A stretch of 32,000 nt of DNA, taken from positions 1,075,294 through 1,107,293 of the forward strand of contig OZ246420.1 of assembly GCA_965231145.1 (NCBI GenBank). The letters run 5' to 3'. This DNA comes from Candidatus Saccharimonadota bacterium (GTDB lineage Bacteria > Patescibacteriota > Gracilibacteria > Absconditabacterales > Absconditicoccaceae). The notes beneath the pieces are model-generated. The model made no database searches and had not been told where the DNA came from. It saw only the letters and a program-made list of their open reading frames with translations. A program made the position numbers and the translations under genes. Shown here piece by piece: positions 6,114-31,872 of the stretch (positions within the stretch are counted from its first letter, which is position 1; each line of letters begins with the position of its first letter).

Positions 6114-6120
6114 GTAGTAG

Positions 6121-6197: not shown

Positions 6198-6209
6198 ATA
6201 TAAATTTCG

Positions 6210-6284
6210 TGGTGCCGGGGGGCAGAATTGAACTGCCGACACAGGGCTTTTCAGGCCCCTGCTCTACCACTGAGCTACCCCGGC
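6210..6284 (-). tRNA. tRNA-Phe (anticodon GAA), CCA encoded
   Basis: The reverse complement is GCCGGGGTAGCTCAGTGGTAGAGCAGGGGCCTGAAAAGCCCTGTGTCGGCAGTTCAATTCTGCCCCCCGGCACCA, with anticodon loop CTGAAAA. Confidence 0.9.
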
Positions 6285-6643
6285 TCAATATAATAAGTGT
6301 TCAATTGCCAATTAACCATGTACTCTTTTTTCTGTCCATCTATTTAATAGACAAAAAAAAACAGTGTAAATGACACGTAGAGGCAGTGAGTTGTCCAATG
6401 ACAGCTTTTACCCTACACATTTACTTTAGTAAGTTTCCACCTATGGTTTTTCAAGACCTTAGGCTTGCGATAACCAACCCTTAGCGGGTAGCTCGAATTG
6501 AATTTATATCGTTTTCCTAGCCAATTGCAAGAGAAAAAGAGAGCAAAATAAGACACAAACTATCCATGGATTTTTCACCCGACATCCGTACATAGTTAAT
6601 ACAATATTTTTGATTCTCTTTTTTGTGTTACTTACCCGCAGCC

Positions 6644-7570
6644 ATGTTACACAAACTACGCTTACATGACGCACCCTTTCGCAATATAAAAAAAGGCATC
6701 AAGAACGTTGAAGCCAGACTCTTCGATGAGAAAAGACAACAGATACAGCCTTGAGATACCATTATATTTATCAATAGAAAGCATCCTGAACAGAAAATAC
6801 ACACAACTGTAATAGAACTTTTTCACTACCCAAGCTTCAATGCAATGTTCAAGGAGCTTCATGAAAAATATCGACCTCGGTCCTCACGAGAAGAGTTGGA
6901 AGATTCTATGCTACAATACTACTCTACTGAAGAAGAAAAGAAATATGGGGTGATTGGCATCAAAATACAACCATTCTCTCCACAAGAAGAGACGCTCGCT
7001 ACATACAATGAAAACATTGACGCATATATGGCAAACACCATATCTACCCCCTCAGAAATCTTAAAATATTGGATTAAACGCTCCTTACAATGAGTTCCTC
7101 ACACAGGCACTATCCTAGAAGTTGGCACATGAGGCGGAAGAGATGCTGATTATATCGAATCATTATGATTTAATATATTAAGGAGCGACGGAGCAACAGG
7201 CTTTGTGGAATACCATCGCAATATGGGAAAAAATGTTTTATTATACAATGTGCTCACCGACGAATTACACGATGAGTATGATCTTATTTTCGCTAATGCG
7301 GTACTACTCCACTTCCCTCACTCTGAAGTCGAACACATTCTCAAAAAATGGAAACAACATCTTACACCAACAGGAAAAATATCTCGATGTGTACAAGAGT
7401 GAGTTGGAGAACAATTGAAAGAAAATAAAAATATGAAGAGATATTTTTATTTCCGAAGCGAAGCTGAGGTAAAAGAAGTAATGAAAAATTTGTGATATAA
7501 AAATCTGGATGTATGGGTAGATGAACCTGAACCCGGAAAAAGATGGATACGCTGTATAGCAACTTTATAA
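6644..7570 (+). CDS. Fusion protein: N-terminal ASCH (PUA-like) domain plus C-terminal class I SAM-dependent methyltransferase
   Basis: One 308-codon frame results once six TGA codons are read as Gly. The N-terminal part (LHDAPFRNIKKGIKNVEARLFDEKRQQIQP-G-DTIIF...YYSTEEEKKYGVIGIKI) is ASCH-like. The C-terminal part carries methyltransferase motif I, ILEVGT-G-GGRDADYIESL-G-F, then YDLIFANAVLLHF. The gene holds 4 CGA and 1 CGG codons. Confidence 0.65.
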
Positions 7571-8579: not shown

Positions 8580-8629
8580 GATACATGTGATTTATTATAA
8601 CTCCTCTATAGTCGTTCGTGGCTCTTTGT

Positions 8630-8660
8630 CAATAAAATAAAAAGCTCGTACGAATACGAG
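8630..8660 (-). terminator. Rho-independent terminator after trmD
   Basis: The minus-strand RNA reads CTCGTA-TTCG-TACGAG followed by CTTTTTATTTTATT, starting 5 nt after the trmD stop. Confidence 0.7.
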
Positions 8661-8664
8661 ATTT

Positions 8665-9363: not shown

Positions 9364-9518
9364 GAACAATGGGTGCAATATTGTGTAAAATAGTATGGTG
9401 TAGTATAAAGCAGCAGCTAGCAAATAGCAATTAGATTTTAGCAATATCCTGAAATCTCCTTGCTATAGCGGGGCGTTTTCCGTATTTCTAAGGGTATATT
9501 TACGATTAATTACTCAGA

Positions 9519-10841
9519 ATGTCAGGAATAGTAAAGAGAACCAATAGTGAGATGTCCTTACGTGACGAACTTAATGAGCGTGGGTTTCTCTACCAGTATA
9601 CGAGTGAAAAGTTATTTGACCTCTATGACAAATGATGAGAATCATTGTATCTTGGATGCGATCCTACTGCAGACAGTCTGCACTTGGGTAATTTTGTCGC
9701 AATCATGAATACGGTGAATTTTATGAAACGCGGGAATCATCTTATCCTGATAGTCGGCGGCGAAACGGGTATGATCGGTGATCCAGGAGGAAAAGACAGC
9801 GAAAGACAAATGCTTTCTCAGGAGACGCTCGAATACAATGTCATAAAGATTACCGAGCAGGTATGAGCAATTTTGAATAACCTCAAAGAGTTGTCAGGAT
9901 ATGACTTTACGTTCGAAGTAATAAACAATCAGGAATTTTACAAGGATATGAGTTTTTCTGGATTTCTGAGAGAAGTGGGGAAATACATTACCGTCAACCA
10001 GATGATGAACAAAGAGACGGTGAAAAAGAGAATCGAAGATCCTGATAAGTCAATTTCCTTTACTGAGTTTAGTTACATGCTCCTCCAGTGATATGACTTC
10101 TTTTGGCTACATACCAACAAACGCGTCAACCTCCAAATAGCAAGTTCTGACCAATGGTGAAACATCGTGACAGGAGTAGAACTGACGGCGAAAAAATGTG
10201 GCGACGAGGTCTATGGCATGACATGACCACTGATTCTTGACTCGACAGGAAAGAAGTTTGGCAAGTCAGAGGGCAATGCAATTTGGCTCAGTCCAGACAA
10301 GAACTCGCCATATTACGTCTACCAGTATTTCATGAACACCTCTGACGAGGATGTCGAAAGATTTCTGAAGCTGTTCACACTACTCAGCATAGACGAGATA
10401 GCAGAAATTGTTACAAAGCACTCTGAAGACACTGCTGCGAGATATGGTCAGCGCACACTCGCCCACTATGTCGTCCAGACAATATTTGGCAAAAAAGCTG
10501 TCGAGGCGGCAGAGAAAATTACCGAGGTGCTTTTTGGCGCTGAAGACAAATTGACATTAATCAACGGAATGAATGAAGATGAGATAAATGCCCTAAAGCA
10601 TGAGACATGAGGAATTATTCTGGAAACCCTCCCTATGAATGTTTGTGATGCTATTATCGCGACATGACTAGAAACTTCGAAAGGAAACGCAAAAAAGGCT
10701 GTCGAGGCAGGATCAATCTATCTCAATGAAATAAAAGTAGAAAAGACCGACCATTCTATCACGAAGGCAGATATCTTAAACGGGAAAGCTGCTCTGCTCA
10801 GAAAGTGAAAAAAGAATTTTAAACTAATTATAAAGGGATAA
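9519..10841 (+). CDS. tyrS: Tyrosine--tRNA ligase
   Basis: Fragments 9645-9866, 9873-10091 and 10332-10610 join, with TGA on conserved Gly residues. Motifs are K-G-G-ESLYLGCDPTADSLHLGN, LLQ-G-YDF, SSDQW-G-NI, KFGKSEGNAIWL, and a C-terminal S4-like tail ending RK-G-KKNF. A later start at Met-12 is possible. It has no CGA or CGG codon. Confidence 0.92.
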
Positions 10842-10904: not shown

Positions 10905-11255
10905 ATGCTGCACTATAAGGAACTTTTGGTATGGCAAAAAAGCGTTGCCATAGCTATTCATGCATATAAAATAACACAGCCTTTCCCAAAGTCCGAACTA
11001 TTTTGACTTACAGATCAAATAAGAAGGTCTTCCGTTTCTATTGCTGCTAATATTGCAGAATGATCACAAAGAGGGACAAAAGAATATAAACACTTTCTTA
11101 AAATAGCAAGAGGTTCAATTGCAGAACTAGATACTCATTTGATTATCAGCAAAGAGGTATGATTTCTTACAGAAGATACCTATAATTTTGTTTACAATCA
11201 ATTAATGGAAGTATGAAGAATGAGCGCATCCTTGTTAAAAAAGCTTTGAGTATAG
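10905..11255 (+). CDS. Four-helix-bundle protein (23S rRNA intervening-sequence protein / Avd-like family)
   Basis: MLHYKELLVWQKSVAIAIHAYKITQPFPKSELF-G-LTDQIRRSSVSIAANIAE-G-SQRGTKEYKHFLKIARGSIAELDTHLIISKEV-G-FL matches the family signature (W.K...L......FP..E.FGL..Q.RRA..SI..NIAEG......EF..FL.IA.GS..E). TGA falls on the conserved Gly positions. Confidence 0.85.
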
Positions 11256-11300: not shown

Positions 11301-12122
11301 TTATTTGCAAATAAGATCCATATCATCTCGGCTTAACTCCTCTATTCTTTTGCCGGCAAGATTTTCCGGTAACTGATACGCATAGCCGTCTAACCTCAAA
11401 ATATTTGCATTTTTTTCGTTGTCATCAACATCATTTTGGCTTTTATAAGCCATTTTCCGACTCTTACCAAGGGTTTTTCTCTTATACATCGAAATTCTCT
11501 CTAAAATCATCTTCATCTGAGGGTAGGCGCACCCTGGGGTGTCTTTTTTGCGTCTGAGAGAAATTATTGACGATTGCACCTTAGGTTTTGGTGAAAATGC
11601 CTTTGCGGGGACCGTTTTTAGGTATAGAACATCATAATGATAGTTCAGCAACCACCACAGGAACGATTTTTTTTCTGCATCATGTTTAATTTTGTCAGCA
11701 ACTTCTTTTTGGATCATAAAAATTCAAACGTCGAACACGGGAGCCTCTCCTCCAAAAAACTTTGTAAGAATCGGTGAGGTAATATAGTAGGGAAGATTTC
11801 CAGCAACCATAGTCTTTCCTGGTTTGAGTCATTTATTTTCTAATAGCGTGAGAGGATCCTGTTCAAGAACATCTCCTCGAATAATTTGAGTTTCTGATCC
11901 ATCGACGACGGATTCAATAAATTCACAGAGATCCATATCTTTCTCAAAAAGGATGACCTGCTTACCAAGATGGATAAGCTTTCTTGTCAGCGCACACTTC
12001 CCTGGTCATATCTCGATAATGGTATCAAGTCCGAGCTCCTGACAATACTGCTCTATTTTTTGAACGATAAAATTGATATACGTTCCGTCTTTCAAAAAGT
12101 TTTGTCCTAAGTAACTCGGCAT
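11301..12122 (-). CDS. rsmA: 16S rRNA (adenine1518/1519-N6)-dimethyltransferase
   Basis: The start is MPSYLGQNFLKD (ATG 12120-12122). The track ORF 11301-11717 extends through three TGA codons. Motifs are TIIEI-G-PGKCALT, VAGNLPYYITSPIL, and V-G-IFMIQKEVADKI. Confidence 0.9.
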
Positions 12123-12195
12123 GACACATATATTCGATAAATGTACCAAGTATACGACTATAGGTTTGTTTTTCTATGGTTTATAGACTTTTTAG

Positions 12196-12259: not shown

Positions 12260-15200
12260 TTACTGTGACCATGTGAATGGGAAAGCACCAGTATTCTTGT
12301 AAGATGAAGTGTCATTGATAACAACGTCACCATTGTCAAGCTTATCAAGGTATGATACGTTTGTAAGGTTGAGACCCATAGGGTTAGAAGTTGTACCATT
12401 CAATGTCGCGATTGGATTAACAACCTTGATAGAGAATGTTATCGTAGCCCCATTAGAGATTTCAACTGGCATACTAGCACCTGCTCCGCTGAAGTTAATA
12501 GTACCAGCTGATCCAGAGTAGATAAGATCACCTCCAAGACCATTCTTGTACACATTAACAACTGGTGCAGCAGCACCGTAACCTGTTGTATTTACTAGAT
12601 CAAATGTGAATCCAGTAACTTGAACTCTATTACCCTTAGCAGTTACATCAAATCTTGCAAACTCAGAAGTCGAAGGAGTTACGTTTACCTTAGAAACAGA
12701 TACCGCACCTCTTGCGATCTTAGTAGACTGAGAAATAGCAACTGTAGGATTAGATACAGCAGTAACAAGCTGTCCATTAGATTTAGAGATAGCTCTTACA
12801 CCACTGTAAGTACCAGCAGTCTGATCAGCAATATCGTTAGCTGTATCGAATGCAAATGTGAATCCTGTAGTTACGTCACCTGTATTAAGAACTGAACTGA
12901 TGTCAGCCTTGATAGAGTAAGTCTTAGTCTGTGAAACAGCAAGACTGTTGTTTGACATACTTTCGAATGCAATTACACCGTTTCTGATTGTACCGAACCA
13001 AGAGTTAGTACCATCAGTAAGCTGTACATTGTTGATCTTGTTAGCAAGGTTTGTTCCGAGACCACCATTTGCCTTAACGTAGAGATCAGTGAGATCAACT
13101 GCATCGTTCTTACCTTCAAGGTTGAACTGAGCGATTGTCACGTTTTGCTGACCACCGTAAAGGAGTTGTGACTGGAGTGATGAGTTAGCTGCAACTTCTA
13201 CTGTAGCAGAACCATTGATAGTGAGTGTACCACCCGCTACGTCAGTTACTGTAACAGAATTAGAAGTTACTGTATCTAGAGCATCAACGTCAGTAAGCGT
13301 AAGCTTCAATGTATCAGTTGTACCAGCAGTGAAGTTACCTCTTACAGTCCATGATACTGGAGCGTTCTTCGCTACAGTAATATTGAGGCTAGAGAATGTG
13401 ATCTTACCGTTTTGGTATGTAGCAGTCTTAACAGCATTACCTTGCGCGTCGTAAAGAGTTGCAGTAAGCTTGTTGTTGAATGCGCTTTGTGGAACTACAC
13501 CAGCTGATGTTGCACCAGAAAGAGTAATCTGATTGATTCTAATAGAGTTAGCCTGAGATGTTGAGAATGTAGCACCGTAAAGGAGCTGATCCTGAGCACC
13601 GTCAACAACTGTCTTAGAAGAGATACCGTCAGTTCTTGAAACAGCAAGTTTAGAAGCTACGATAGTGATTGTTGCACCTTCGATAGAACCAACTGAAGCT
13701 GATCCAGAAACTGCGTTTTGGTTATTCTGATACTCTGCAGTGTCAAAACTGTCGAGTGTGAGAGGACCAAATTTGATAGTAGCAGCACCAGCGTTTGACT
13801 TAATGTCAGCTGTAAGCTCTACGTCAACTGTACCATTGATAGCTACTGAACCATCAAATGATGCAGCTGTAAGACCTGTTCCGCTATCTGCAGACCAAGT
13901 GAACGTAGAACCACCGATTCTAAGTTTGTATGAGTTAGCGATGTTACTTGCTCCTGTAGAAGCAGTGAACGCTAAAGCAATATCCTCGAGGTATACTGGA
14001 CTCTTAGCAGAGATAGTACCCTTAAGAAGAACTGAACCGTTAGTACCTGGAGAAATACTGTTAGAGAGTGAGAAAGCTGAATCTCTCTTGAACATTACAT
14101 CAGCACCATTTACTGTGTAAGTCTTAAGTGTTGGAGTTCCAGATACTCTTACTCTAAATGCAGTTGTTTCTTCGATAACATTGAGATCAGAAGTGTTTCT
14201 GAGTCTGAAGATATATGTATCACCATCAACACCGTCAACATAGTTAACAGTACCTCTGATGTAGTAGTTAGCAGTCTGTCCGTCCTTGATTTCGTCACCG
14301 TTACCAAGACCGAATGTAAGATCCTTACCATTCATAACTGTTACAGTTGATACCTTAGTACCGTTTCTGTAAAGAGCTACATTTGAAAGGCTAGTAAGAT
14401 CTCCATCACCATCCTGTCTAAATGTTACTGACTTGAAGCTAAGATCTCTTTCGTCAGCACCAGTAGAAGAATCGATAACTCTGAACTGACCAATTTCAAG
14501 ATCAGTAGCATCAGTAGCAGTTGCAGTAAGTCCTGCACCAGCTTCCTGGATAGTTACCAATGAAACAAGGTAGTTAGCAGTTCTAAGTGTTGGAGTAGTA
14601 ATCATACCAACTACATTAGCAGCAGTACTGTCGATAGATGTAGACTGGAACATATGTTCACCTCCTACATTAGCAGCAGCCATGTCAGCGTAAAGGTCGA
14701 TAGATTCAGTTGTTCCTGCCTTGATCACCCATGCTGGTGCGAAGCTAAGAGTAACTGTCTGATCAGAACTTACCGAAGCTCTAGAAGACACTCTGATACC
14801 GTCTTTTTCGAAGTATACTCTAGAAATGTCAGACGCGTTACCGAGTCCTGATCTCTTAAGAGTTACTGAATTAACAGTAATGTCCTTAGAACCTGCAGCA
14901 AAGTCTACAGTAGCGAACTTCACTGAACCTGCTTGAGGAACAGAAGAAAGGTTTGCTGGAGACGCAGAGTTCATTGAGATATTGAGGTTACCTTCTCTTA
15001 CAACGATAGGACCAGTAGAACCAGTACCATTGTTATTACAAAGAGTTGGATCAATATCACAAAGACCATTGTTGTCTATTGCCAATCTGTAGAGCATGAG
15101 CATCATGTCACCTCTAAGGATTGATTGACTAAGCATAGCGTACTTCATGATCCCCTTAGAGTTAAGGAGTTCGAAGTGAGCTTGTTCAGAAGACATAGGA

Positions 15201-15628
15201 TCAATTTCACCGAGCATACGAGATACTACAGTTGCAACCTGACCTCTTGTTACTTCTTGCTTAGGCATGAACTTACCATCGTGTCCCATCATGAGACCGA
15301 GGTTACAAGCAGCTGTGATGCTGTCAGTAAGAGTGTCGTCAGCCATAGCGGTATCTGTGAAATCGCAGCTTCCTGCAACTTCTTCGAGACCGAGTACTGA
15401 CATACCAAACTGGCTAGCAAATTTAGCAAATTGCTCTCTAGTAAGATTTGCGTAAGGCATAAATGTGTCTGTTCCGCTGTACTTTGTCAAACCTGCATCG
15501 TAACCCCAAGAGATCGCGTCGATCATTTCAGGATCAGTTACTACTGGAGCTCCGTAAGCGAGACCAGTAACGAGTTGACTAGCAACAACGGCAGCAGCAG
15601 CTGATGTAGCAATAAGCTTTTTCAACAT
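12260..15628 (-). CDS. Putative S-layer / cell-surface protein: signal peptide, three SLH-like repeats, then a long Ser/Thr/Gly/Asn-rich region of repeated beta-type modules
   Basis: The start is placed at MLKKLIATSAAAAVVASQLVTGLAYGAP (ATG 15626-15628). SLH-like segments are IDAISWGYDAGLTKYSGTDTFMPYANLTREQFAKFASQF, FTDTAMADDTLTDSITAACNLGLMMGHDGKFMPKQEVTRGQVATVVSRML, and a degenerate third ending ILRGDMMLMLYRL. The remaining ~900 aa is low in charged residues and shows recurring VTL..SG... and V.L.DG motifs. It is an uninterrupted 1122-codon frame with a strong terminator. Confidence 0.75.
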   Translation of the reverse strand: MLKKLIATSAAAAVVASQLVTGLAYGAPVVTDPEMIDAISWGYDAGLTKYSGTDTFMPYANLTREQFAKFASQFGMSVLGLEEVAGSCDFTDTAMADDTLTDSITAACNLGLMMGHDGKFMPKQEVTRGQVATVVSRMLGEIDPMSSEQAHFELLNSKGIMKYAMLSQSILRGDMMLMLYRLAIDNNGLCDIDPTLCNNNGTGSTGPIVVREGNLNISMNSASPANLSSVPQAGSVKFATVDFAAGSKDITVNSVTLKRSGLGNASDISRVYFEKDGIRVSSRASVSSDQTVTLSFAPAWVIKAGTTESIDLYADMAAANVGGEHMFQSTSIDSTAANVVGMITTPTLRTANYLVSLVTIQEAGAGLTATATDATDLEIGQFRVIDSSTGADERDLSFKSVTFRQDGDGDLTSLSNVALYRNGTKVSTVTVMNGKDLTFGLGNGDEIKDGQTANYYIRGTVNYVDGVDGDTYIFRLRNTSDLNVIEETTAFRVRVSGTPTLKTYTVNGADVMFKRDSAFSLSNSISPGTNGSVLLKGTISAKSPVYLEDIALAFTASTGASNIANSYKLRIGGSTFTWSADSGTGLTAASFDGSVAINGTVDVELTADIKSNAGAATIKFGPLTLDSFDTAEYQNNQNAVSGSASVGSIEGATITIVASKLAVSRTDGISSKTVVDGAQDQLLYGATFSTSQANSIRINQITLSGATSAGVVPQSAFNNKLTATLYDAQGNAVKTATYQNGKITFSSLNITVAKNAPVSWTVRGNFTAGTTDTLKLTLTDVDALDTVTSNSVTVTDVAGGTLTINGSATVEVAANSSLQSQLLYGGQQNVTIAQFNLEGKNDAVDLTDLYVKANGGLGTNLANKINNVQLTDGTNSWFGTIRNGVIAFESMSNNSLAVSQTKTYSIKADISSVLNTGDVTTGFTFAFDTANDIADQTAGTYSGVRAISKSNGQLVTAVSNPTVAISQSTKIARGAVSVSKVNVTPSTSEFARFDVTAKGNRVQVTGFTFDLVNTTGYGAAAPVVNVYKNGLGGDLIYSGSAGTINFSGAGASMPVEISNGATITFSIKVVNPIATLNGTTSNPMGLNLTNVSYLDKLDNGDVVINDTSSYKNTGAFPFTWSQ

Positions 15629-15692
15629 GTGTCGTTGTAAAAAAGGAAATAAATAGAATGGATAAAACATCCATAAATTAAAACATCCCAAT

Positions 15693-15708
15693 CCGTGTCT
15701 CCACACGG
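15693..15708 (-). promoter_or_regulatory. 5' leader hairpin upstream of the S-layer gene
   Basis: CCGTGT-GGAG-ACACGG on the minus strand lies about 65 nt upstream of the start codon. It is preceded by TTGACA-N17-TAATGT. Assigning it a leader or stabiliser role is inference. Confidence 0.35.
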
Positions 15709-15924
15709 TTACATTAGTAATACTCATCTACCCTGTCAATGCAAGTCTTTTTTGACACAACACGACAGACATATTTTGCTAGGTAGATACTGACTTATAT
15801 GTAACACATCAGTACCCTAGATACGAGCAAATTCGGTTTTTGTGACACACATATATACATTAATATAGACATAGAATAGATTTATTTAAGACACATTAAG
15901 CCTTGACCGGTTTCATAAAATAAA

Positions 15925-15999: not shown

Positions 16000-16070
16000 C
16001 AAGAGAACCAGGGATTGAACCTGGACTATCAGCTTCGGAGGCTGATGTGCTACCACTACACCATTCTCTT
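16000..16070 (-). tRNA. tRNA with anticodon CCG (nominally Arg) but tRNA-Trp-like identity features
   Basis: The reverse complement is AAGAGAATGGTGTAGTGGTAGCACATCAGCCTCCGAAGCTGATAGTCCAGGTTCAATCCCTGGTTCTCTTG. It has an A1-U72 pair, a G5-C68 pair and discriminator G73. Anticodon loop CUCCGAA equals the Trp loop CUCCAAA with only position 36 changed, and keeps A37 rather than G37. The D-loop AGTGGTA has U at position 20, not the A20 used by ArgRS. Confidence 0.8.
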
Positions 16071-16178: not shown

Positions 16179-17669
16179 TTATCCAGACCTGCGCGACAAT
16201 AACACAATTGCTGTTATAAGTCCAAAAGTAACAATAAGTATGACAATTCTGGCTCGTCATGTTTCTGCATGTATAATAATACTATGATCAATACTTCGTT
16301 TATTGACAGCATAGATTCGCCGTACGGACCATAGCTGCGGATAAGCAAGTCGGCGGTACGCAGTAACACTATAGAGAAGTGCCGAGAAAAATCCATAGAT
16401 CATCACGAGCGGCACAAGCGGAACGATAAGCACATTCGACAAGATAGACACAAGATTGACGCGACTGGTAAAGAACAAAAGAGGCGTAAAAATACCGAGA
16501 GCAGCAGCAATGCTAGGCAACAAATAGAGATTCCGGAAACGACTTATCAGATCCTTCAACAATGCTTTATATTCACGAAATTTTATTTTCTTTGTAGTGT
16601 CTGCTCTTCGGCGCTGCGAAAAGAAAGCAAGTCATGCTAGCGCAGTAAAGCTAAAAATAAATCACAAATCATAAAGAAGATAGTAAGGGTTTCGTAGAAG
16701 CATGGCTACATAGACATACGCCATATTGCACCATACATGCAGCGCACGACCCAAAAAAACCGCACTGATGCTCAATAACGCCATAAGTGATGCGCGCACC
16801 ACTGAACTATCCCAACCACACAATGATGCATACATAATAACAGACAGAGCAAGAATCGCAGACCTAAGATAATAGGGCAAAAAGAACAACAATGCAGACA
16901 AAAAAGAAACAAGGAGCACTATATTTCATCCGCTGACCGCAATAATGTGGACAAGTCCTGACTCTACAAAAGAGCTATACTCCTCTTTCGAAAGATGCGA
17001 ACGATCACCCATAAACATCCCGAGAGACAATCCTAATACTCTTCCATCATAGAGCCCCTGATAGAGTCATATGAGCTGCTGACGTCGTGCGAGTAATCGA
17101 GATGACGAACCTTCGCCCACCACAATACCCTGCTCCTCATATAAAAATCACACTCTCTCTTTCATTATCATCCAACGATCCATGTCAAACTCTCGCTCTA
17201 CAGCGCCTACTAACGCGGCTTTTTGGCGCAAAGACAACCAGACAGGAGCCGCCCACCAATCTCCACTGAGAGAGATTATCTTCGGTTGCGCCACAGCAAA
17301 AACAATGCTTCCGAGGGGATAATAAGCATCGCTATAATAGAGAAAATCTCTTCCCTCTCTATCGCGAAAAACATATCTCTCACTCCCCTGATTTTCTATG
17401 ATCTCTCCAGTTCCTGAATATGTGGATCACACCACTCCCACCCTCTCCTGATATGAGGAGATAAAAAAAGACACGCTGGCGACAGTCAAAAAATATGTCA
17501 ATACGACAGATCAAATTTTTATAAAAGACAACTTAACGGATCTTTTTTGTAAAAACGACTGAACCAAAATTCCTACAATGAGAAAAAATCACACTCCCGC
17601 CGCTGGCCGAAAATTTCCGAAAAAAGTATGAAGCGCCACAAAAATACTTATCGACAATATGAACAACAT
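16179..17669 (-). CDS. comEC: ComEC/Rec2-family DNA internalisation channel, short form (496 aa, no C-terminal metallo-beta-lactamase domain)
   Basis: One frame joins the track ORFs 16257-16562 and 16662-16919 and an N-terminal region when TGA is read as Gly. Motifs are GLVHIIAVSG-G-NIVLL, CGWDSSVVRASLMAL and YDL-G-FIFSFTALA-G-L. The N-terminus has TM helices and an OB-like region (EFDMDRWMIMKERV-G-FLYE). The stop is the TAA at 16179-16181. Confidence 0.8.
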
Positions 17670-17803
17670 TTTTTGTTTTGGTTTGCACAATTAAATATGA
17701 CATTTTAGACAGAAGATTGACAAACAACCTTGCACAATTTTATTTACTTTTTTGATCCTCATTAGTTTACTTCAATTTTTGTTTTTAATCTTTTATTTTT
17801 CAT

Positions 17804-18763
17804 TTACCCGAGATTGTACTCCTCTAAAAATTTTTGTACTTTTTCCTGATAAGCGATCGATTTTGCTTTTATGCCCAACAAATGAAGGATAAAAAGGAAA
17901 TGAAGACGAGAGCCGACAGCAGTAGACGACCTAGACATAAATGTCAACGTCGTGTCAATATCGTTAAACCATCGTTCGTAACTTATTATTTCAGGAATGA
18001 TAACTTTTAGTTGTCATAGCATGTCGACATCTTCTTGTCAACATGGAAAGAACACACATTGACAATGTCACCAGAGATCGACAGACAGCTTAATCGTTTC
18101 TAAGTCTGTCAAAGAGTGGCGATATGGTGTCAAGTTTATTAATCCATATTTATGGCTTTTAGACTGATCTTTTATGTCATTTTGACAATGTTGCCACCTA
18201 TTGACAACTTCTGTCGCAAAATCAGGGTGGTGGACAAGGTTGTCGTGATTATTTCAAAGGTATTTAGCCAATATTTCGTATGATAACCTTTCCCTAGCAA
18301 CCAGTTTTTGACACCTTTTGACTGTCAACTTGTAAAGGAGCTTCATCCGTCGACGAGTAGGAGTCCCAAATCCACCCAACATGACAACATTTTTTCTTAT
18401 AAAATCTGTAGCAAAAAGGATATAATAATTTCGTCATCCATAAAACCATCCGCGAGCTTGAGTAAAAACTTCTCATCATCCGAAGAATTTTAATGCTTTA
18501 GGATTGCACAATCATTTCGTGATGATTTTCTTGTAATTGTTCTTTTGAATGCTTTCTAGTTTGCACAAATCTATATCTAAATAATGGCGATTTTTGTCTA
18601 TTCGGCCGTCAAATCGCTTCTTATCGCCCACCTCTATATAGAGTTTTTCTATCGTAGGGTAGTGAGCAAAAATTCGATTTATGACACCGAAAACCAGTAT
18701 CTCGTCTCCAAAATTTTTATACCCATAATAGCATTTAAGATATCCTTCTTTGGGGTCACGCAT
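17804..18763 (-). CDS. csaB: Polysaccharide pyruvyl transferase, CsaB-like
   Basis: The 319-codon frame runs through multiple TGA codons. The N-terminus YLKCYYGYKNFGDEILVFGVINRI matches the G(Y)YG..N.GDE motif. It continues FF-G-G-GEVFTQARGWFYG-G and MLGGFGTP (the GQGIGP-equivalent position). Confidence 0.6.
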
Positions 18764-18824: not shown

Positions 18825-21287
18825 CTATTGTTCATCCTTGGCATACCACTGATCAACCCATTTGTTTCGCTTATTTGATAATTCTCAGCTAAACAAAGCC
18901 AATCCTTTGCCGACGAAATAGTCTATAAAGACTGATGGGTCGGTCTTAAATGCAAATTGCTTTTTCAAATCTCCTATAGCAAAGGAATATCCTTCTAATG
19001 ACAAGTTCTTACCTCAAGATAGAGAGTTCATGGCCTTTATATTGGCGTCTAAAAGCTCTTGCAGAGCAACAATATCGGGATTTTGCCGTACCATAGCCCA
19101 GTTTTCCCTAAGATAGTTCTGGACAATCTTATCATAGCTTTTCCAGATCTTCGTCTCAAGTTGTGAAGCTGAAAGCTTGGTTTTATAGTCGGTGCGGACC
19201 GACTTTACCTGCTGATAGTACTTCCTCCATTTAGCCTCCAATGTTTCCTTTGTCTTCTTGTATCTTTCCTGCAGAGTCTTGTATTGAGAGGTCTTTTTAT
19301 CAAATTTCTTCTGCAGAGAATCTATTTTCTTCTGATATGACGCTTGTTTTTTTGCATCAAGAGCAGGGGAGAGATCTTGACATGAAAAAGGCGTCTCGCC
19401 AAAAAATGCACATACCTGTCCAGTCTGGACAGCGAGGCGTAGCTGCTTCATTCGTGAGAAGTCGGTTATACCTGAGAGAGTATTGTCGGAAGCAATATTG
19501 CCAGTAAGACCTATCCAGACACCTGCTTCAGGTTGTCCATAACAGAAAGTGTCCTGGACTATAGCATTGTGTTCAAGGGTAATACATGTGGGCTTGTTGG
19601 TAAAGCCAAATGTGCCTTTTACTGTCTGCTTGTCTCAGGGCATCTGGAGAAGTCATCCTAGCATCGTTTTCTTTGAGCCAACGCGAATAAGAAACGAAGA
19701 GATATCTATAGGACCGCCCGATACAAGCTCCACCGTAACCTGCTCATTATGCTCGTCCTTCCCGTCTCCATCTGCCATGACAGCGACAATCCTTACCTGA
19801 TTGGACAATCACGACACAACTTCGCCATTGAACTCTTCGGCTCAGTCGACAAGCTCTATCTCGCCTGCATTTGTCTTTTTATATGCTATTCATCCCTTGT
19901 TCACCGCAAGGCCAAAGGCTGAGATTTGGTCTTTCAGATCGTAGTAACGATCTTTCCGCTTTTTATATAACCCCTGATAATAGGAGTTGTCGACACTTGT
20001 TTTCGTTGCCAAGGAGGAGGAAGAATATGCTGAGAAATATGCCAACGCTTTCTCAGAAAATCATGGGGTTGGAAAATCTTTCTGTATTGGTTCACTCCCG
20101 CTCATATACCATGAACGACCAGAGGCTGAGCCTGTATAATGAACGTTCGCATAGACAGAACCGAAAGCATCTGTCACAACGAGACTCTCTCCTCCGTCTG
20201 TAAGAGACACTGAATCCGTGAGTAAAACCATAGAGGGGTCTACAAAACCAGATAGGGAGTCGGCAAAAACAACATATTGACCTGCGTGGACATTGAGGTG
20301 GACTGTCTTAGCTGTCGAGCTAGAACCGATTCATTGAATGATCAAACTACCGGAAAAAGACGACACAAAAAACAATTCCATGTATTCAGGCAATGTGTCA
20401 TTAGTCGGGTGTATTTCACTTATTATAATACCACTATTAAAAGAAGCCTCGCCGGTGGAAATATTGTCTCAAGTGAGAATATTGCCAGTAAGGGGAGGAG
20501 TGGTTTCACTCGCGGACGGAAGTGGAGGCATTGGTTGATATGTCATGATCTGTCCGGGATTGGCAATCCAGGTACCGGAAATATTTGTTACTCTCCCGGT
20601 GTTGGTGGAAGAAACAGCAACAACTCATCCAGACCAAATCTTTTCGAAACCATAGTTATTGGGCAGGACAGAAAGGATAGATGCCTCTACAGAGAATGTG
20701 TCCAGAAGTTGTCATGAGCTATACAAACCGACAGCAAGAGCATTTGTATCAGAAATACTGAGTCCCAATGATGATCCCTGAACGACCCCTCTGTCTATAA
20801 ACTGCGCCATTGTGTCTCACCAGACAAATGTCGAACCAACAGGAATATGTATCAATCAGAGAGAAAGATCTGATGACTTCACGCCTTTTACTACGAGTGG
20901 TCATATGAACTCTCATGATCAGATATTCGAGATCTCGAACCACTCGTCGCTCCCATCAAAAAATATTTCTGACACGATAAGCGCCGCCTCGCCAGTGAAA
21001 AGAGTCTGCCCAGTCTCTACAAGTAACGCTGACACTATGTCGTCAGCAAGAGCTGTCTCAACAAAGACACCCGACGTAGTGAATAAATCACTAGCAACTC
21101 ATGACAGCTCGACAGAAGTGGGGAGAGGTGCTTCGGAAACAAGCAACTCCGGAACTTGTTCCATAATCAGTCAGTCTGAAAGAGCCTGCAAAGAGAGAGT
21201 AGGAATCTCTATCGACTCCGCAAACAATAAGAAATAGCTATGAAGCGTCATCAACAAAATAAGGCCAAAGCATAATCATTTTTTCAT
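18825..21287 (-). CDS. Secreted protein with three lamin-tail-domain (LTD)-like modules and a C-terminal Lys/Gln-rich coiled coil
   Basis: The single 820-codon frame is visible only with TGA read as Gly (I counted about 29 in-frame TGA). The signal peptide is MKK-G-LCFGLILLMTLHSYFLLFA. LTD-like segments are ALIVSEIFFDGSDEWFEISNI-G-S-G-EFI, GIIISEIHPTNDTLPEYMELFFVSSFSGSLIIQ-G-I, and VRIVAVMADGDGKDEHNEQVTVELVSGGPIDISSFLIRV. The tail is the track ORF 19014-19451. Confidence 0.7.
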
Positions 21288-21442
21288 TTTTGTTTTTGTT
21301 CAAAGAGTAAATTTTGCATTGCCACCATAGAAAAAATGTGTCATCTTACAAGTAATTGTGTCCACCAGAATGACAAAAAAGTTGTATAATATCAATTTCC
21401 GCTACTCTACGCCAGAAATCAAATAAAAAACCCTCTAAAAAT

Positions 21443-26335: not shown

Positions 26336-27451
26336 ATGCGCATAGCTTTCGCCGGAGGAGGAACATGATGACATGTTTTTCCGATTAGAGCGCTGATACA
26401 ACATATTTATTCGCATGGTGAATACAAGCGCAAAGCTGAAGCGCTCGTACGATTTGGCGAAAAGTGAAGCCTCGAAGAGCATGTCGCAAAGGAGTTTTCT
26501 GATGTGAAATTTGTGCCTATTGTTTCCGGAAAGCTCAGAAGATCTCCATCATGGAAAGAACTTGCAAAGAATATGTATGACCTGGGATCTATGACATACG
26601 GAATCATACAATGTCTCAGGTTATTGAAGAAGCATAAAATCGATGTGATCTTCTGCAAGGGAGGATATGTCTCATTGCCAGTAGTTATAGCCGGACGAAT
26701 ACTTCGCAAAAAAATCATCCTTCATGAATCAGACACCAAAGCGGGACTTTCTAACAAGATCTGCGCAAAATTTGCGAACCACATCTTTACCGGCTTCGCC
26801 GGAGTTTTTCCCCATAGAGAAGTCGTTGTCTGACAAATCTTAAGCAATGATTTGCTCAATAATTCTAAATCAAACTTGGAACCTGAAACTATAGATAGAA
26901 ATTGAGCTCCGAGAATTGAGAATTGAGAATCAACGAAGACAAGCATTTTAGTCACTTGAGGCTCTCAGGGGGCAGAATCGGTTTATAGACCTCTTGCGGC
27001 GCTTATTAAAAAAAACGGCTACAAGGGAAGCCACTTTCACATCGTTTTAGGAACGAAAAACACTGGATTGAAATCTCTTTTTGAAGGGCTGAGCAACACC
27101 ACCTGCTATGATTTTGTCAGTCAGAAGGAAATGGGTGGATTACTATCGCTGTGCGATGCGGCAATAACGCGCGCGGGAACAACATCGCTCGCCGAGGAAA
27201 AACTTTTTTGATTGAAGCTTGTTATTGTTCCTATCCCATGGACACATGATCAGCTAAGAAACGCGGAGTACTATATGAAACGTCATGGAGATCTTTTGGT
27301 AAAACAGGATGATAGTTTCTTATTGAATCTTCCTATTGCGCTTGATGTGATAACAAAGCATAAAAAAAACCGGACTCAAGACAATATTGAGACCGATATT
27401 AATAATGCTAAGGATGTTGTTTGTCAGCAGCTATTTGACTCTCTCAGCTAA
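26336..27451 (+). CDS. murG: UDP-N-acetylglucosamine--N-acetylmuramyl-(pentapeptide) pyrophosphoryl-undecaprenol GlcNAc transferase
   Basis: MRIAFAGGGT-G-G-HVFP, then KGGYVSLPVVIAG.ILRKKIILHESD, ILVT-G-GSQGA and ITRAGTTSLAEE. Six TGA codons read as Gly. CGA codons lie at 26450-26452 and 26696-26698, and a CGG at 27371-27373. Confidence 0.9.
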
Positions 27452-27549: not shown

Positions 27550-28302
27550 ATGGAACAACATAACAAACTCCTGCATCAGGCACGGAAAGATAGTGCGTGG
27601 ATGCCAATGGTTGTTGTGGGCGTCCTTTATATAGCATTGAGCTTCTTTTACGACGTTCACTGCATCACACCAAATAGCATTTCTACGCCTTTCACGAAAG
27701 ACATCTCGTGGAGTTACACATCATCAACCTGGTTCGACGCCTGCTTCTTCTTTGTGTGTGTATTTACCTTTTACTACTTCAGGACTATCCTGAAAAAGTA
27801 TAAAGCAAACGTCCTTCGCATAAAAAACACGGCAATCATCATAGTAACAACCCTCTGTTTTTTCTCTATCATCTGTGGCGAAACTGAAGGAGGAAAACAA
27901 TTCATCATCAAGATTCTCGATGAAACCATGTTCGCCGACATGCTACTACCAGACTACTATGGAGTAGTGTTTGCTTTCTGGTTCGGAACACTTGGCGGAA
28001 TAACTATTGGCATCGTGTTTGGCATCTTAGGTGTGTTTAATATAGCCATAGAAGGCGTTATTATCTGCACACTTATGGGCGCCATGAGTGGCATAGTTGC
28101 TTTTATAGAACTATCTCTCCACAAGGGATTCTTCTATGGACTCATCTATGGAATAGTTCTTGTTGCTACAAACATTGTTATCAATGCGTGTGGCATAGCC
28201 GCAATCGGGGCTCCACTTGCGCTACTTCAGAAAACACGATCTATGGCTATGGACCGGAAGGAGAAGAGCGACGAAGCCTATCAAAAAAGACTAAAAAAAT
28301 AA
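27550..28302 (+). CDS. Hypothetical polytopic membrane protein (250 aa)
   Basis: Intact ORF with several hydrophobic segments (VVVGVLYIALSFFY, ACFFFVCVFTFYYF, IIIVTTLCFFSIIC, and a Gly-rich GVVFAFWFGTLGGITIGIVFGILGVF). It has a basic C-terminus. Confidence 0.55.
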   Translation: MEQHNKLLHQARKDSAWMPMVVVGVLYIALSFFYDVHCITPNSISTPFTKDISWSYTSSTWFDACFFFVCVFTFYYFRTILKKYKANVLRIKNTAIIIVTTLCFFSIICGETEGGKQFIIKILDETMFADMLLPDYYGVVFAFWFGTLGGITIGIVFGILGVFNIAIEGVIICTLMGAMSGIVAFIELSLHKGFFYGLIYGIVLVATNIVINACGIAAIGAPLALLQKTRSMAMDRKEKSDEAYQKRLKK

Positions 28303-28336: not shown

Positions 28337-29887
28337 TTATACATTTTCTACAAACATCGTTTTGCTTCTATATTGCATAGCTTCTGCAATGTGGGGTACA
28401 CCGACAATTTCTACTCATTCGACATCTGCTATAGTACGGGCAAGCTTGAGCATACGATGGATGACGCGTCAAGACAAATGGAGTTTTTTTGCAGCTTGTT
28501 TCAGGAAATTTTCTGCTTGTTCATCGAGAACTATGTACTTTTGAATTTCCTTAGACGTTACTCATGCATTAGAAAAAATACCGGTTCCTACATATCTTTT
28601 TTGTTGTATCTCCCAGGCATGCATTACTTTTTCACGTAATAATTCAGAGCTTACTCACTGGATCTTTTCAAAGAGCGTATCGACATTTTCACGTGGTATC
28701 TCTAGAATCATATCAATCCTATCCAGCAGTGGTCATGAGATCTTCGACTGATAACGTTTAATATCAAGCAATCAACAAACACATGATTTTTCAGGATCTT
28801 TATAGTAGCCACACTTACATGGATTCATCGCAGAGATAAACATAAAATGCGCAGGATACCAGACTGATCACGCTGCACGAGAGATCGTTATCTGTTTGTC
28901 TTCTATGGGCTGACGAAGCACCTCCAAGACTTCACGTGGAAACTCAGGAAGCTCGTCGAAAAAGAGTATTCACTTATGGGCAAGCGACACTTCTCATGGT
29001 TGCAGGCTGGCTCATCATCATATGATAGACACTTTACTCGCTGTATGATGCACCGGACGAAAAGGGCGCTGCGTCACTAAGGGTTGCTCCTTGCTTAACT
29101 TTCCGACGATAGAATAAATCTGTGAGACTTCTATCATTTCATCGAAATGAAGCGGCGGTAAGATAGACTGAAGGGCATGTGAGAGCAGCGTCTTTCATGA
29201 GCCTGGAGCGCCGACCATGAGCACATTGTGTCATCCAGCGGCAGCGATAGCAAGCGCGCGCTTTGCAACAAGATGTCACTTGATGCTACTAAAATCTACT
29301 GGGAATGTTGTAGCGCTTGTAGCAAGATCACTGAGAGATTTTGTAGTAACGAACGGCTCTCTTTTCTTTCCTGCAATAAAAAATTCTATGAGTTCAGCAA
29401 AGGTAGAGAGCGGATAGATCGTAATTCATTGGATATATTCTAACTCATATATATTGTCGCTGGGGATGAAGAAGATCGTATATCCTCTTTTCATGGCTGC
29501 GATAACTGCAGGCAAAAGACCCGTAATTCTTCTGACGGATCCGTCGAGTCAAAGTTCACCAAAGAAAAGAGTTTCTGCAAGAGTTGCTTCATGATGGATA
29601 TGTTCACTAATAAGAAAAAGTATCGCTGCAGCCATGGGCAGATCAAACTGGGTTCATACTTTTTTGATATCAGACGGTGCTAAGTTGAGAATGATTTTCC
29701 TGGGCGGAAGCTCGACGCCGGCATTACGAAACGTAGCACGCAAACGTTCTTTCGACTCCTTAATAGCCGCATCGGGCAGTCATATAATTTCTATAGTTGG
29801 AATCGCCTTATTACTATCTGCCTCTATGGTGATCTCGTGACCCTCAAGTCCAAAAGTAGCAAATGTTTTGACATATGACTGTGGCAT
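28337..29887 (-). CDS. comM: ComM/YifB-family Mg-chelatase-like AAA+ ATPase
   Basis: The 516-codon frame is recovered with ~19 TGA codons read as Gly. Motifs are [53 protein letters not shown] (Walker A), [29 protein letters not shown] and [11 protein letters not shown]. It has no in-frame CGA or CGG. Confidence 0.9.
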
Positions 29888-30009
29888 CTGTTTTTGTTTT
29901 GGAAAAATAAATTGTCTCTCATCGTAGAAATTGAACCATGCGTTACAAGAGAGGAGACGAGAATAGTCTGGAGAATATTATTTTATAAAAATATGATTTT
30001 TTTCTTAAC

Positions 30010-30500
30010 AAAAAAGAGCCCGGAGAACCCGGGCCCTACTGAGGCTTTCAAACATGGTTCGCGTGTTGCGGACCTTTAGGGTAGCCGGAAAGGCCCCCAT
30101 GAAGTCTGCGTAGCACGCCTAGAAAGTAATGCATAAACAAATGCCCCTCGCACATGATCGAATTAGGCGCATTACTTATCTACTACTGAACCCCTCAGTA
30201 AAAACAGAAAGCTATCTGAAGTCAGCTGTTACGCACTGATTATAGGAATGGCTGCTTCCAAGCCAACCTCCTCCAGGTCATTGCTTTCGCACTTATGCAA
30301 TAAACATTAGTTCACCGTTTTACCGCGACATGCTGGCACGATGAAAAGGGTGGGTTCCCATTTTAAATGCAAAGTTGTAAGCCAACTACATCCCTTTTTT
30401 GCCCCTAATGTTTAGCCAAAAACTTATCGGGCTTGTCCGCGTGGTGTCGGATCAGTATTTTCATACCAATTTCGGCCTCTCTTTTTTCGCTCGCCACTAC
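30010..30500 (-). ncRNA. GC-rich structured non-coding RNA(s), identity unresolved; RNase P RNA is one weak candidate
   Basis: There is no credible ORF. Local GC is far above background: 37 of 60 bases are G or C in 30061-30120. The minus-strand terminator is GCCCGG-GTTCT-CCGGGC plus TCTTTTTTG at 30010-30034. Perfect nested helices pair 30037-30044 with 30193-30200 (8 bp), 30125-30132 with 30169-30176 (8 bp), and 30053-30057 with 30097-30101. Short matches to RNase P conserved regions (GCGGUAAAAC, AGUGCGUAACAG, GAGGGGUUCA, CGAACCAUGUUU) are present, but I could not build a convincing P4 helix or motif order. Confidence 0.45.
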
Positions 30501-30612
30501 TTAAAGAGCAATGATAGTTATTCAGCTGTAGGAAATAATAGGATTGTTTATAGTATTTGCAATATCTTGTTTTCGGCCAATAAATCAGTATGTTTTCGTA
30601 CGATTTTAATTT

Positions 30613-31563
30613 GTGAAAATGAGTGAAATGGCTGATATTATAGTATTGGGACATAAGTCTCCAGACACTGATGCAATTTGTTCTGCGCTCGTATGGGCAC
30701 AATACCTAAAGGACCAAGGAGTAGATGCACAGGCAATCAGACTTGGAGAACCAAACAATGAGACAACATATGTACTGGAAAAAGCTGGGGTAGCGCTTCC
30801 TGAGTTTCTTACTGAGCTTCCGGAAGGACAAAAAATTGTGCTTACTGACCACAATGAAGCGGGACAGAGTATCAACAACAGAGGAAGCTACAAGATCGTT
30901 GGTATTGTCGATCATCATAAGATTGCTGATCTTGAGACAAGCGAACCTATTGCTATGAGAATCGAACCCGTAGGATGTGCGTGTACTGTTATCTATGCCA
31001 TCTTCAAAGAAAAAGGATACACACCAAATGCGAATATCGCTCGTCTTATGGTCTCTGCTATTATTTCTGATACGCTCTATTTCAGATCTCCAACCACAAC
31101 AGCATTTGATCGCCAAGCAATAGAAGAGCTCAATAAGATTGCAGCCATAACGAATCTTGAAGCATATTCTATGGAGATGTTTAACGCAAAGTCAGACCTC
31201 GGAGATATCACTATCAGAGATCTTGTCATGATGGACTACAAAACATTTGAATCGGGAGGAAAGAAGTTTGGAGCTGGAACTGTTGAGACAACAAACCCAG
31301 CGTTTGCTCTTGGTAAGAAAGCGGAGATCGTAGCAAAACTCAATGAACTTAAAACAGAGCAATCTCTCGACTTTATCATGCTCTCTGTAGTAGATATCTT
31401 ACAGGAGAAAAATATTTCTATCATCGCCAATGAGCATGATGCGCACATCGTACAGGAGGTGTTTAGTGCTGAAACTCACGATGGACTTGCAGATCTCGGC
31501 AACAGACTCTCAAGAAAGAAACAAATTGCAGCCCCACTCTCAGAGTACTTTATGAATCACTAA
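30613..31563 (+). CDS. ppaC: Manganese-dependent inorganic pyrophosphatase (family II, DHH/DHHA2)
   Basis: IIVLGHKSPDTDAICSA, VLTDHNE, IVDHHKI, SAIISDTLYFRSPTTT and SRKKQIAAPL are collinear with Bacillus PpaC. The true start may be the Met at 30628 (MADIIVLGH). It has no TGA, CGA or CGG codon. Confidence 0.92.
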   Translation: MKMSEMADIIVLGHKSPDTDAICSALVWAQYLKDQGVDAQAIRLGEPNNETTYVLEKAGVALPEFLTELPEGQKIVLTDHNEAGQSINNRGSYKIVGIVDHHKIADLETSEPIAMRIEPVGCACTVIYAIFKEKGYTPNANIARLMVSAIISDTLYFRSPTTTAFDRQAIEELNKIAAITNLEAYSMEMFNAKSDLGDITIRDLVMMDYKTFESGGKKFGAGTVETTNPAFALGKKAEIVAKLNELKTEQSLDFIMLSVVDILQEKNISIIANEHDAHIVQEVFSAETHDGLADLGNRLSRKKQIAAPLSEYFMNH

Positions 31564-31570: not shown

Positions 31571-31840
31571 ATGACATATTTTATCATGTATATGCTTCTT
31601 ATCAACATTGCAACATTTGCTGTGCGATGAATAGATAAGCGAAAGGCTTCTAAGGAAAAACGAAGAGTTCCAGAAAAGCATTTACTTATCCTTGCTGCGG
31701 CAGGAGGGCGGATTTGAGCAGCAATCGGCGTCCAATACTTCAGACACAAAACAGTAAAAACAAGTTTTGCATGGAGGCTATGGTGAATCGTGATTGCATG
31801 GGTTGTGCTTTCTTTCGTGCTCTTATATCAATTACAGTAA
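31571..31840 (+). CDS. DUF1294-family small membrane protein
   Basis: The 89-codon frame reads MTYFIMYMLLINIATFAV-x-G-IDK-x-KASKEK-x-RVPEKHLLILAAAGG-x-I-G-AAIGVQYFRHKTVKTSF, where x is CGA or CGG and G is TGA. It matches the family pattern (Y)G.DK..A....WR.PE..L..L...GGW.GA......RHKT.K..F. Confidence 0.8.
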
Positions 31841-31845
31841 TTAAG

Positions 31846-31872
31846 AAACCTCTCCGCCGGGAGGTTTTTATA
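31846..31872 (+). terminator. Rho-independent terminator after the DUF1294 gene
   Basis: AACCTCTCC-GCC-GGGAGGTT followed by TTTAT, starting 7 nt after the stop codon. Confidence 0.7.

Follow-up and report, generated by a model that had tools for sequence, protein, structure and literature searches.

In the Absconditabacteria (SR1), Codetta has been used to predict that both CGA and CGG encode tryptophan in place of arginine, in genomes where UGA is read as glycine (Shulgina and Eddy, eLife 2021; PMC8629427). The prediction was supported by examples of conserved alignment columns and by the presence of Trp-type tRNA(UCG) and tRNA(CCG) genes, and according to its authors the decoding in vivo can be established by experiment alone (PMC8629427). 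In the reassigned genomes CGA is used 22-37 times, CGG 1-24 times and UGG 35-76 times per 10,000 codons, at a GC content of 0.29-0.38 (PMC8629427). [quoted passage not shown]

A comparable capture of an Arg codon has been described in Anaerococcus and in the RFN20 Bacilli/Onthovivens, where it also occurs through a tRNA(CCG) without Arg identity elements (PMC8629427). These lineages have in common with the locus described here a low to moderate GC content and the rarity of the codon concerned. They differ from it in that only CGG is reassigned, while CGA remains Arg through tRNA(ICG) and UGA is a stop, as opposed to the present locus, where CGA and CGG are both Trp and UGA is Gly.

The window (the whole stretch of DNA that was analysed, 32 kb in length) has a GC content of 0.407 and carries long open reading frames containing TGA throughout. 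Its 29 genes, which include the S10 ribosomal-protein operon, tuf, trmD, tyrS, ksgA, comEC, murG, comM and ppaC, hold 117 in-frame TGA codons in total, and the tyrS and comM frames, like that of a small gene for a DUF1294 protein, are intact only with TGA as a sense codon. In this window UGA encodes glycine: when the genes are aligned with those of related contigs, TGA (146) and GGN codons (267) together make up 413 of the 521 partners of TGA. CGU, CGC, AGA and AGG stay Arg, and CGA and CGG (together, CGR) behave in a Trp-like manner. The genome from which the window comes is very probably that of a member of the Patescibacteria (CPR) that uses code 25 in the manner of the Absconditabacteria (SR1), with UGA as Gly and with CGA and CGG moved from Arg to Trp, and the CGR codons of the DUF1294 gene are Trp codons on this reading.

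Further points of agreement with the Absconditabacteria code are that CGA is commoner than CGG, that a tRNA(CCG) with G73 and no A20 is present, and that codon usage (36 CGA, 13 CGG and 83 TGG per 10,000 codons) falls in or near the published ranges. The local GC content of 0.41 (0.40-0.43 in the related contigs L002, L003 and L019), in contrast, is slightly above that of the published set. The window contains 33 CGA and 45 CGR codons, and the latter constitute 45 of its 121 Trp codons. These totals retain a CGA at codon 5 of the L3 frame, which comes before the start assigned on an identical Logan contig (product 194 aa) and was left out of the expression comparison given below, and a CGA at codon 32 of a 1,155-residue protein, which may precede the true start of that protein.

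The DUF1294 (YsdA-like) gene encodes a small membrane protein and extends on the forward strand from an ATG at 31571 to a TAA ending at 31840, with 89 sense codons between them. Under table 11 it has three internal stops and no such ORF is listed. The three in-frame TGA codons are found at 31628..31630 (Gly20, GGA in L002 and L003), at 31715..31717 (Gly49, GGG in both) and at 31784..31786 (codon 72), so that the gene is intact only under code 25, in which TGA is Gly. The original prediction spelled two stretches of the protein GIDK and IGA, spellings that presuppose code 25, and made no mention of the in-frame TGA. Syntenic orthologs are found in L002 and L003, where they likewise sit downstream of ppaC, and a terminator-like hairpin with a T-run (31844..31869, forward strand) lies directly 3' of the stop codon of the gene in the window.

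It was on this gene that the original prediction centred, and the three CGA codons and one CGG codon that it reported there were confirmed in position, all on the forward strand. They comprise codon 19 (CGA, 31625..31627), in the aromatic column that precedes G-x-DK (AV-x-GIDK); codon 24 (CGA, 31640..31642), in the context DK-x-KA; codon 31 (CGA, 31661..31663), at the W position of the W-R-(V/I)-P-E motif; and codon 47 (CGG, 31709..31711), in the G-G-W-x-G-A column within a membrane segment. Four CGR in 89 codons is roughly nine times what the window shows on average (49 per 10,000), an excess that fits a Trp-rich membrane protein with three TGG and four CGR codons. In the relatives, codon 19 is CGA or CGG, codon 24 is CGG and codon 47 is CGA or CGG; at codon 31, the WRVPE column, L002 has CGG and L003 has the true Arg codon AGG.

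When its CGR codons are masked as X, the protein matches the DUF1294/YsdA family model PF06961 over profile positions 1-55 of 55, with 76.2 bits (E=2.3e-21, cutoff 25). It has the full domain in common with the family, including G-x-DK, W-R-x-P-E, GG-x-x-GA and F-R-H-K-T, and shows no structural difference from it; what sets it apart is that four residues are encoded by CGR and become R in a standard translation. With all four set to W the score rises to 85.8 bits, compared with 76.8 bits with all four set to R, an advantage for W of 9.0 bits. Single-site variants were scored with the other CGR masked as X, and the resulting bit difference gives the log-odds of the model for each column. At codon 31, W scores +4.7 and R +0.9 bits; at codon 47, W scores +3.6 and R -0.9 bits, and Ser is accepted too (+1.6 bits). 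Codon 19 prefers Y (+3.4) and F (+2.5) over W (-0.1) and R (-1.0), and codon 24 takes R (+1.7), W (+1.5) and K (+0.9) almost alike. The W-R differences at codons 19, 24, 31 and 47 are therefore +0.9, -0.2, +3.8 and +4.5 bits. Codons 31 and 47 are strong W columns, codon 19 is a Y/F column that disfavours R, and codon 24 is equivocal.

This comparison with the family model, which had been proposed as a check on the original prediction, comes out in favour of Trp, with two W columns, one aromatic column and one equivocal column. The motif alignments put forward there hold as well: EK-CGA-RVPE falls on the Trp of a WR(I/T)PE-type motif and AAGG-CGG-IGA on the Trp of a GGW motif, while AV-CGA-GIDK falls on an aromatic column, as had been said of it, where the consensus is Tyr/Phe and W is neutral. 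The further claim that an Arg reading breaks two family motifs and that a Trp reading restores them agrees with the scores (WRxPE and GGWxGA, with all-W above all-R). The protein therefore reads ...FAV-W-GIDK-W-KASKEK-W-RVPE...AAGG-W-IGA...

Database homologs of the DUF1294 protein give a similar picture. A word-indexed homolog search with the X-masked sequence as query gave no match, and the W-substituted query gave 20 database homologs. In these 20, codon 19 corresponds to Y, W, F or M and never to R or K, and codon 24 to W, R, K or S; codon 31 corresponds to W in 20 of 20, in a set biased by W-containing seed words such as WRVPE. Since the search was seeded with a W-bearing query, the homolog columns for W31 and W24 are biased, and the Pfam scores were relied on instead.

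The strongest evidence for the Trp reading comes from the exchange of codons with related contigs. Syntenic relatives L002 and L003 were obtained from a PpaC scan of genome contigs, and L019 to L023 from a TyrS scan of metagenome contigs; a further contig, L024 (GC 0.62, 36% identity), was excluded from the codon tables as a distant organism. Protein alignments were mapped back to codons, only columns with conserved flanks were kept, and partners were counted as ordered pairs, so that the tables given here cover the window and six related contigs (L002, L003, L019-L023). The 188 partners of CGR consist of 78 CGR, 70 TGG, 7 other Arg codons, 3 Lys, 13 aliphatic, 5 Phe/Tyr and 12 other codons. 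Ordinary Arg codons (n=1,485) are paired with Arg in 1,076 cases (72%) and with Lys in 175 (12%), with CGR in seven and TGG in one, the other 226 being of other kinds. TGG, in turn, has among its 219 partners 92 TGG, 70 CGR, 1 other Arg, 5 Lys and 51 other codons. The profile of CGR differs from that of ordinary Arg with p=1.7e-104 in a Fisher test, a value inflated by the ordered pairs, although the effect is very large; compared with TGG, the profile of CGR is indistinguishable (p=0.19).

Taken separately, CGA (n=107) is paired with TGG 39 times, CGA 32 times, CGG 18 times and AGA twice, and CGG (n=81) with TGG 31 times, CGA 18 times, CGG 10 times, AGG twice and AAG three times. Neither TGA nor any GGN codon is found among the 14 commonest partners of CGA. 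The column statistics for CGA and CGG that were proposed with the original prediction have thus been obtained for the window and its relatives, and the two codons are seen to trade places with TGG rather than with codons for Arg or Lys.

The same pattern is seen in individual genes. Among the relatives, CGG or CGA occurs at positions where the window has TGG in S3, L22, L2, EF-Tu, TrmD and TyrS, and L019 has CGG at such sites in EF-Tu, S3, L2, L22, TrmD and TyrS. In the E. coli and S. aureus crystal structures of TyrS, Trp occupies the columns SDQ-W-GNI and AI-W-L, and W213 and W256 of TyrS are encoded by CGA in L021 and L020. In the opposite direction, codons 447, 458 and 479 of comEC are TGG in relatives, each of the three CGR columns of ksgA/rsmA (11301..12149, reverse strand) has TGG in at least one relative, and a CGA at codon 255 of an ASCH-methyltransferase fusion protein (6623..7570, forward strand; five CGR) stands opposite TGG in L019. 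In a gene for an 857-residue protein (18825..21395, reverse strand; 4 CGR and 21 TGA), 13 aligned columns exchange TGG and CGR between the window and L002 or L003, and two more have CGA in both. For the polysaccharide pyruvyl transferase gene (17804..18763, reverse strand; seven CGR), the CGR columns in L021 contain TAT, TTT and TGG at three positions and CGT, an Arg codon, at codon 139.

The last of these belongs to a small number of true-Arg exceptions to CGR as Trp, which account for 7 of the 188 pairs and include the AGG of L003 at the WRVPE column of DUF1294; others are an AGA in L003 at codon 121 of murG and, in comF, one column that has AGA against CGG. Pairs of CGR with Arg are similar in frequency to pairs of TGG with Arg or Lys codons. 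The exceptions are one-step non-synonymous changes under the new code and do not upset the Trp reading, although a little room remains for occasional positions of Arg-like character or for decoding that is ambiguous.

The distribution of CGR among gene classes has a bearing on the same question. The original prediction had found no CGA or CGG in tuf, tyrS, trmD, ppaC and comM, and this was verified, with none in 1,926 codons and with Arg encoded by AGA, AGG, CGT and CGC. Across the ribosomal-protein, EF-Tu and housekeeping genes of the window, the ratio of CGR to TGG is 0:21, compared with 44:55 elsewhere (p=2.8e-5). The relatives show a weaker bias in the same gene classes (15:27, compared with 78:45 elsewhere; p=0.002). 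Outside housekeeping genes CGR is more frequent than TGG in these relatives (78 to 45), which resembles the most advanced published case, GCA_002791215.1.

An ambiguous or transitional decoding, in which CGR would be mostly Trp and partly Arg, or in which CGA and CGG would differ, so that the products of CGR-rich genes would be statistical mixtures, draws on these last two sets of observations, since AGR or CGY codons for Arg stand opposite CGR in a small share of the columns, and CGR is absent from the ribosomal-protein, EF-Tu and housekeeping genes of the window as if it were costly or error-prone there. The published table also contains one genome of the Absconditabacterales with CGA as Trp and CGG as Arg, and the 2021 authors leave ambiguity open (PMC8629427). 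This explanation nevertheless has to be reconciled with an exchange profile of CGR that is the same as that of TGG, and with the CGG of close relatives at conserved Trp sites of EF-Tu, S3, L2 and TyrS, where leaky decoding would be harmful; in addition, no Arg-type tRNA for CGR was seen in the loci examined. It is considered very improbable, and a complete change of both codons to Trp is the preferred reading. That this genome, unlike its relatives, has cleared CGR entirely from these genes might be due to some remaining ambiguity, to a tRNA in short supply, or to the use of these codons as slow regulatory codons.

Pfam models of other window genes provide a second line of evidence for the Trp reading. 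All CGR codons of a protein were set to one residue and the protein was rescored, with R, W, F, Y, L, G and K tried in turn; Ser and Thr were tried only at single positions of DUF1294. Four families were compared in this way: DUF1294, the Competence domain of comEC (16179..17690, reverse strand; nine CGA and three CGG, together 12 CGR, and nine TGA), the pyruvyl transferase, and MurG (26336..27451, forward strand; three CGR), which was scored over both domains. For DUF1294, W gives 85.8 bits, followed by Y (81.5), F (78.2), R (76.8), K (75.4), L (75.1) and G (72.5). For ComEC the scores are W 138.6, R 132.5, K 132.2, F 131.2, Y 130.9, L 130.6 and G 128.7 bits, and for the pyruvyl transferase W 44.8, Y 42.3, R 40.3, F 39.5, K 38.3, L 37.9 and G 37.6 bits. 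MurG gives W 145.9, Y 144.0, L 143.1, K 142.7, F 142.6, R 142.4 and G 137.5 bits. Summed over the four families, W reaches 415.1 bits, Y 398.7, R 392.0, F 391.5, K 388.6, L 386.7 and G 376.3. Because W is at the top among the seven residues in each of the four families, the signal is specific for Trp, as opposed to a general preference for hydrophobic residues.

Controls were run in both directions. When the ordinary Arg codons (AGA, AGG, CGT and CGC) are changed to W, the score falls by 25.8 bits for ComEC, 21.7 for MurG, 11.5 for KsgA and 38.5 for the XerC integrase domain. The reverse control, with TGG changed to R, is noisy (-5.6 bits in ComEC and +5.6 in the pyruvyl transferase). The W-R difference is neutral or slightly negative in KsgA, XerC and the ASCH domain, with -1.1 bits for KsgA and, within the fusion protein, -1.7 for ASCH and +2.5 for MT_23. 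The power of Pfam is limited in these divergent proteins, for which reason the codon exchange between orthologs was added.

Solved structures were also compared for MurG. In three of three structures the counterpart of codon 39 is the Trp of a (V/S/H)-W-L motif, by direct alignment in two of them and, for that of E. coli, after a gap had been moved by eye; this codon is TGG in L003. Codon 121 corresponds to W in E. coli and to R in the two other structures, and is TGG in L002. With one column plainly Trp and the other divided between W and R, this comparison is not decisive by itself.

It could be argued from such columns that CGA and CGG are still Arg, and that DUF1294 fits Trp motifs by chance or through lineage-specific substitutions of Trp by Arg: column 24 of DUF1294 takes R as well as W, codon 121 of MurG is R in two of three structures, L003 has AGG at the WRVPE column, and the scores of KsgA, XerC and ASCH are neutral. 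The exchange tables are difficult to explain on this basis, as CGR is paired with TGG in 70 of 188 cases and with Arg or Lys in 10, while real Arg codons are paired with TGG in 1 of 1,485. To this may be added the advantage of W over R by 23 bits across the four Pfam families, the CGR codons of relatives at conserved Trp columns of TyrS and at sites with TGG in the window in EF-Tu, L2 and S3, and a tRNA(CCG) that lacks A20. An unchanged Arg meaning is accordingly held to be highly unlikely. The proposal made with the original prediction, that CGA and CGG form a reassigned codon family, is supported as a change to Trp by the Pfam scores, the codon exchange and the identity of tRNA(CCG).

The gene for this tRNA lies at 16000..16070 on the reverse strand, where it adjoins comEC, and was found with ARAGORN, which labels it tRNA-Arg(CCG) and adds one extra U-G pair on top of its acceptor stem. 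The tRNA has a 7-bp acceptor stem with A1:U72, U8, a G73 discriminator, a D-loop of AGUGGUA in which position 20 is U instead of A, an anticodon stem of 5 bp and an anticodon loop of CUCCGAA. Position 36 is the only one at which its anticodon departs from CCA, the anticodon for Trp, and its 5-bp anticodon stem agrees with what has been reported in PMC13092985. A tRNA that has G73 and lacks A20 counts as a Trp acceptor under the published rule, with A/G1:U72 as a supporting feature (PMC8629427). With G73, no A20 and A1:U72, tRNA(CCG) therefore has an identity of the Trp type and not of the Arg type. In L019 and L021 the same tRNA keeps A1:U72, G73 and U20, and a compensatory change from U:A to C:G in its anticodon stem in L019 indicates that the gene is under selection. 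A blastn search with tRNA(CCG) against E. coli genomes, for likeness to trpT or argX, gave no match. A tRNA(UCG), as needed for CGA, was found neither in the window nor in the related loci examined, and no Arg-type tRNA for CGA or CGG was seen in any locus examined.

In the proposed mechanism, CGA and CGG, one half of the CGN box of Arg, would be captured by a Trp-type tRNA. The tRNA(CCG) would be charged by TrpRS and would read CGG, and a Trp-type tRNA(UCG) encoded elsewhere in the genome would read CGA, the commoner of the two codons, probably with no Arg-type tRNA to compete for either. Under the new code TGG, CGG and CGA are joined by single transitions, which allows drift among these synonyms in weakly expressed genes, and the highly expressed genes of this genome retain TGG. 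The reassignment is apparent in the codon statistics and in the identity elements of the tRNA, and it is from these that we infer it at the level of aminoacylation.

In plant organelles C-to-U editing turns CGG into UGG, and at one time CGG was wrongly taken to encode Trp there; a genomic CGG at a Trp position is common to plant organelles and the window. An editing of CGG to UGG with the code itself unchanged, which would produce CGG at Trp columns just as it does in plant mitochondria, can be rejected here with hardly any probability remaining, since CGA too acts as Trp and not as Gly, standing opposite TGG 39 times although its edited form would be UGA (Gly here), and since a dedicated and conserved tRNA(CCG) with Trp-type identity would then be needless. 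We know of no description of large-scale C-to-U editing of mRNA in bacteria.

Reassignments of sense codons are very rare in bacteria, and that of CGA and CGG to Trp is one of five reported in 2021. The present analysis brings no new biology past the published prediction, and the absence of CGR from the ribosomal-protein, EF-Tu and housekeeping genes of this genome, together with its slightly higher local GC, is only mildly new. What it adds is independent support, from codon exchange and from the conservation of the tRNA, in genomes that are not tabulated in the 2021 source data, as well as the identification of well-conserved candidate peptides for a proteomic proof.

For the annotation of such genomes the consequences are considerable. 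Under table 11 the genes of the window are broken at TGA, and a translation by table 25 still gives Arg for roughly one in three Trp codons (45 of 121). In an Arg translation, false charges appear in membrane segments and the WRxPE and GGWxGA motifs are broken, and because ARAGORN names tRNAs by their anticodon, the tRNA(CCG) responsible is labelled as a tRNA-Arg. It is possible, though rather unlikely, that this lineage has reached a late or atypical point in the known reassignment, as its local GC content of 0.40-0.43, the excess of CGR over TGG in the non-housekeeping genes of the close relatives and the complete loss of CGR from the housekeeping genes of this genome might suggest. If that is the case, these genomes would offer a natural series for how a reassigned sense codon regains frequency.

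Within the window, the use of CGA and CGG (CGR), which are read as tryptophan, differs sharply between gene classes. When the genes at 206-5939, 7584-10841 and 28337-31563, encoding ribosomal proteins, EF-Tu and housekeeping functions, were compared with all other genes of the window, the former were found to contain no CGR codons and 21 TGG codons, while CGR accounts for 44 of the 99 tryptophan codons in the latter (p=2.8e-5). In related genomes the bias is weaker, with CGR:TGG ratios of 15:27 in the same functional classes and 78:45 in the rest, and CGG is used by these relatives at conserved tryptophan positions of EF-Tu, S3, L2 and TyrS.

The distribution of TGA, which encodes glycine in this genome, is also very uneven among the genes of the window. 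Codon counts revealed no TGA in the genes for S3 (206-907), S19 (1301-1558), L4 (2957-3631), EF-Tu (4752-5939), PpaC (30613-31563), a 1,155-residue protein (12260-15727, minus strand) and a 250-residue multi-pass membrane protein (27550-28302, plus strand), while 21 were counted in the gene for an 857-residue protein (18825-21395) and 19 in comM (28337-29887). The membrane protein gene carries three CGR codons; comparison with Pfam gave no match for its product, and no ortholog was found in the otherwise syntenic loci of the related contigs L002 and L003. The 1,155-residue protein, with its high content of Ser, Thr, Ala and Gly and what appears to be a signal sequence at the N-terminus, probably belongs to the surface or S-layer-like proteins. 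Its identity is 79% in the related metagenome contig L019 but only 33% in a second such contig, L021. These two contigs (at 6348-6604 and 1481-2110, respectively) also share the tRNA-Pro(UGG), tRNA-Ile(GAU) and tRNA-Phe(GAA) cluster that adjoins tuf in the window (6040-6284, minus strand). A further contig, from a public run (Logan ERR4405440, 7,299 bp), encodes proteins 100% identical to those of the S10-operon genes of the window (206-4629). Its gene calls appear to have been made with a code lacking TGA read-through, for example in L2 (248 aa, as opposed to 281 aa in the window) and L3 (194 aa).

A true arginine codon was observed at an otherwise tryptophan column, that of the W-R-x-P-E motif of DUF1294, where the window has CGA (31661-31663) and L002 has CGG, whereas the L003 ortholog has AGG (approximately 11026-11028). 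This is either a genuine Trp-to-Arg change via one transversion or a hint of a column that tolerates arginine, for which the Pfam model scores R at +0.9 bits.

The highest CGR count of any gene in the window, 12 codons, is found in comEC, and directly upstream of it in window coordinates lies a tRNA with anticodon CCG (16000-16070, minus strand). Although labelled tRNA-Arg(CCG) by ARAGORN, this tRNA has the Trp-type identity features A1:U72, G73 and U20, and software that derives tRNA names from the anticodon will report it as tRNA-Arg.
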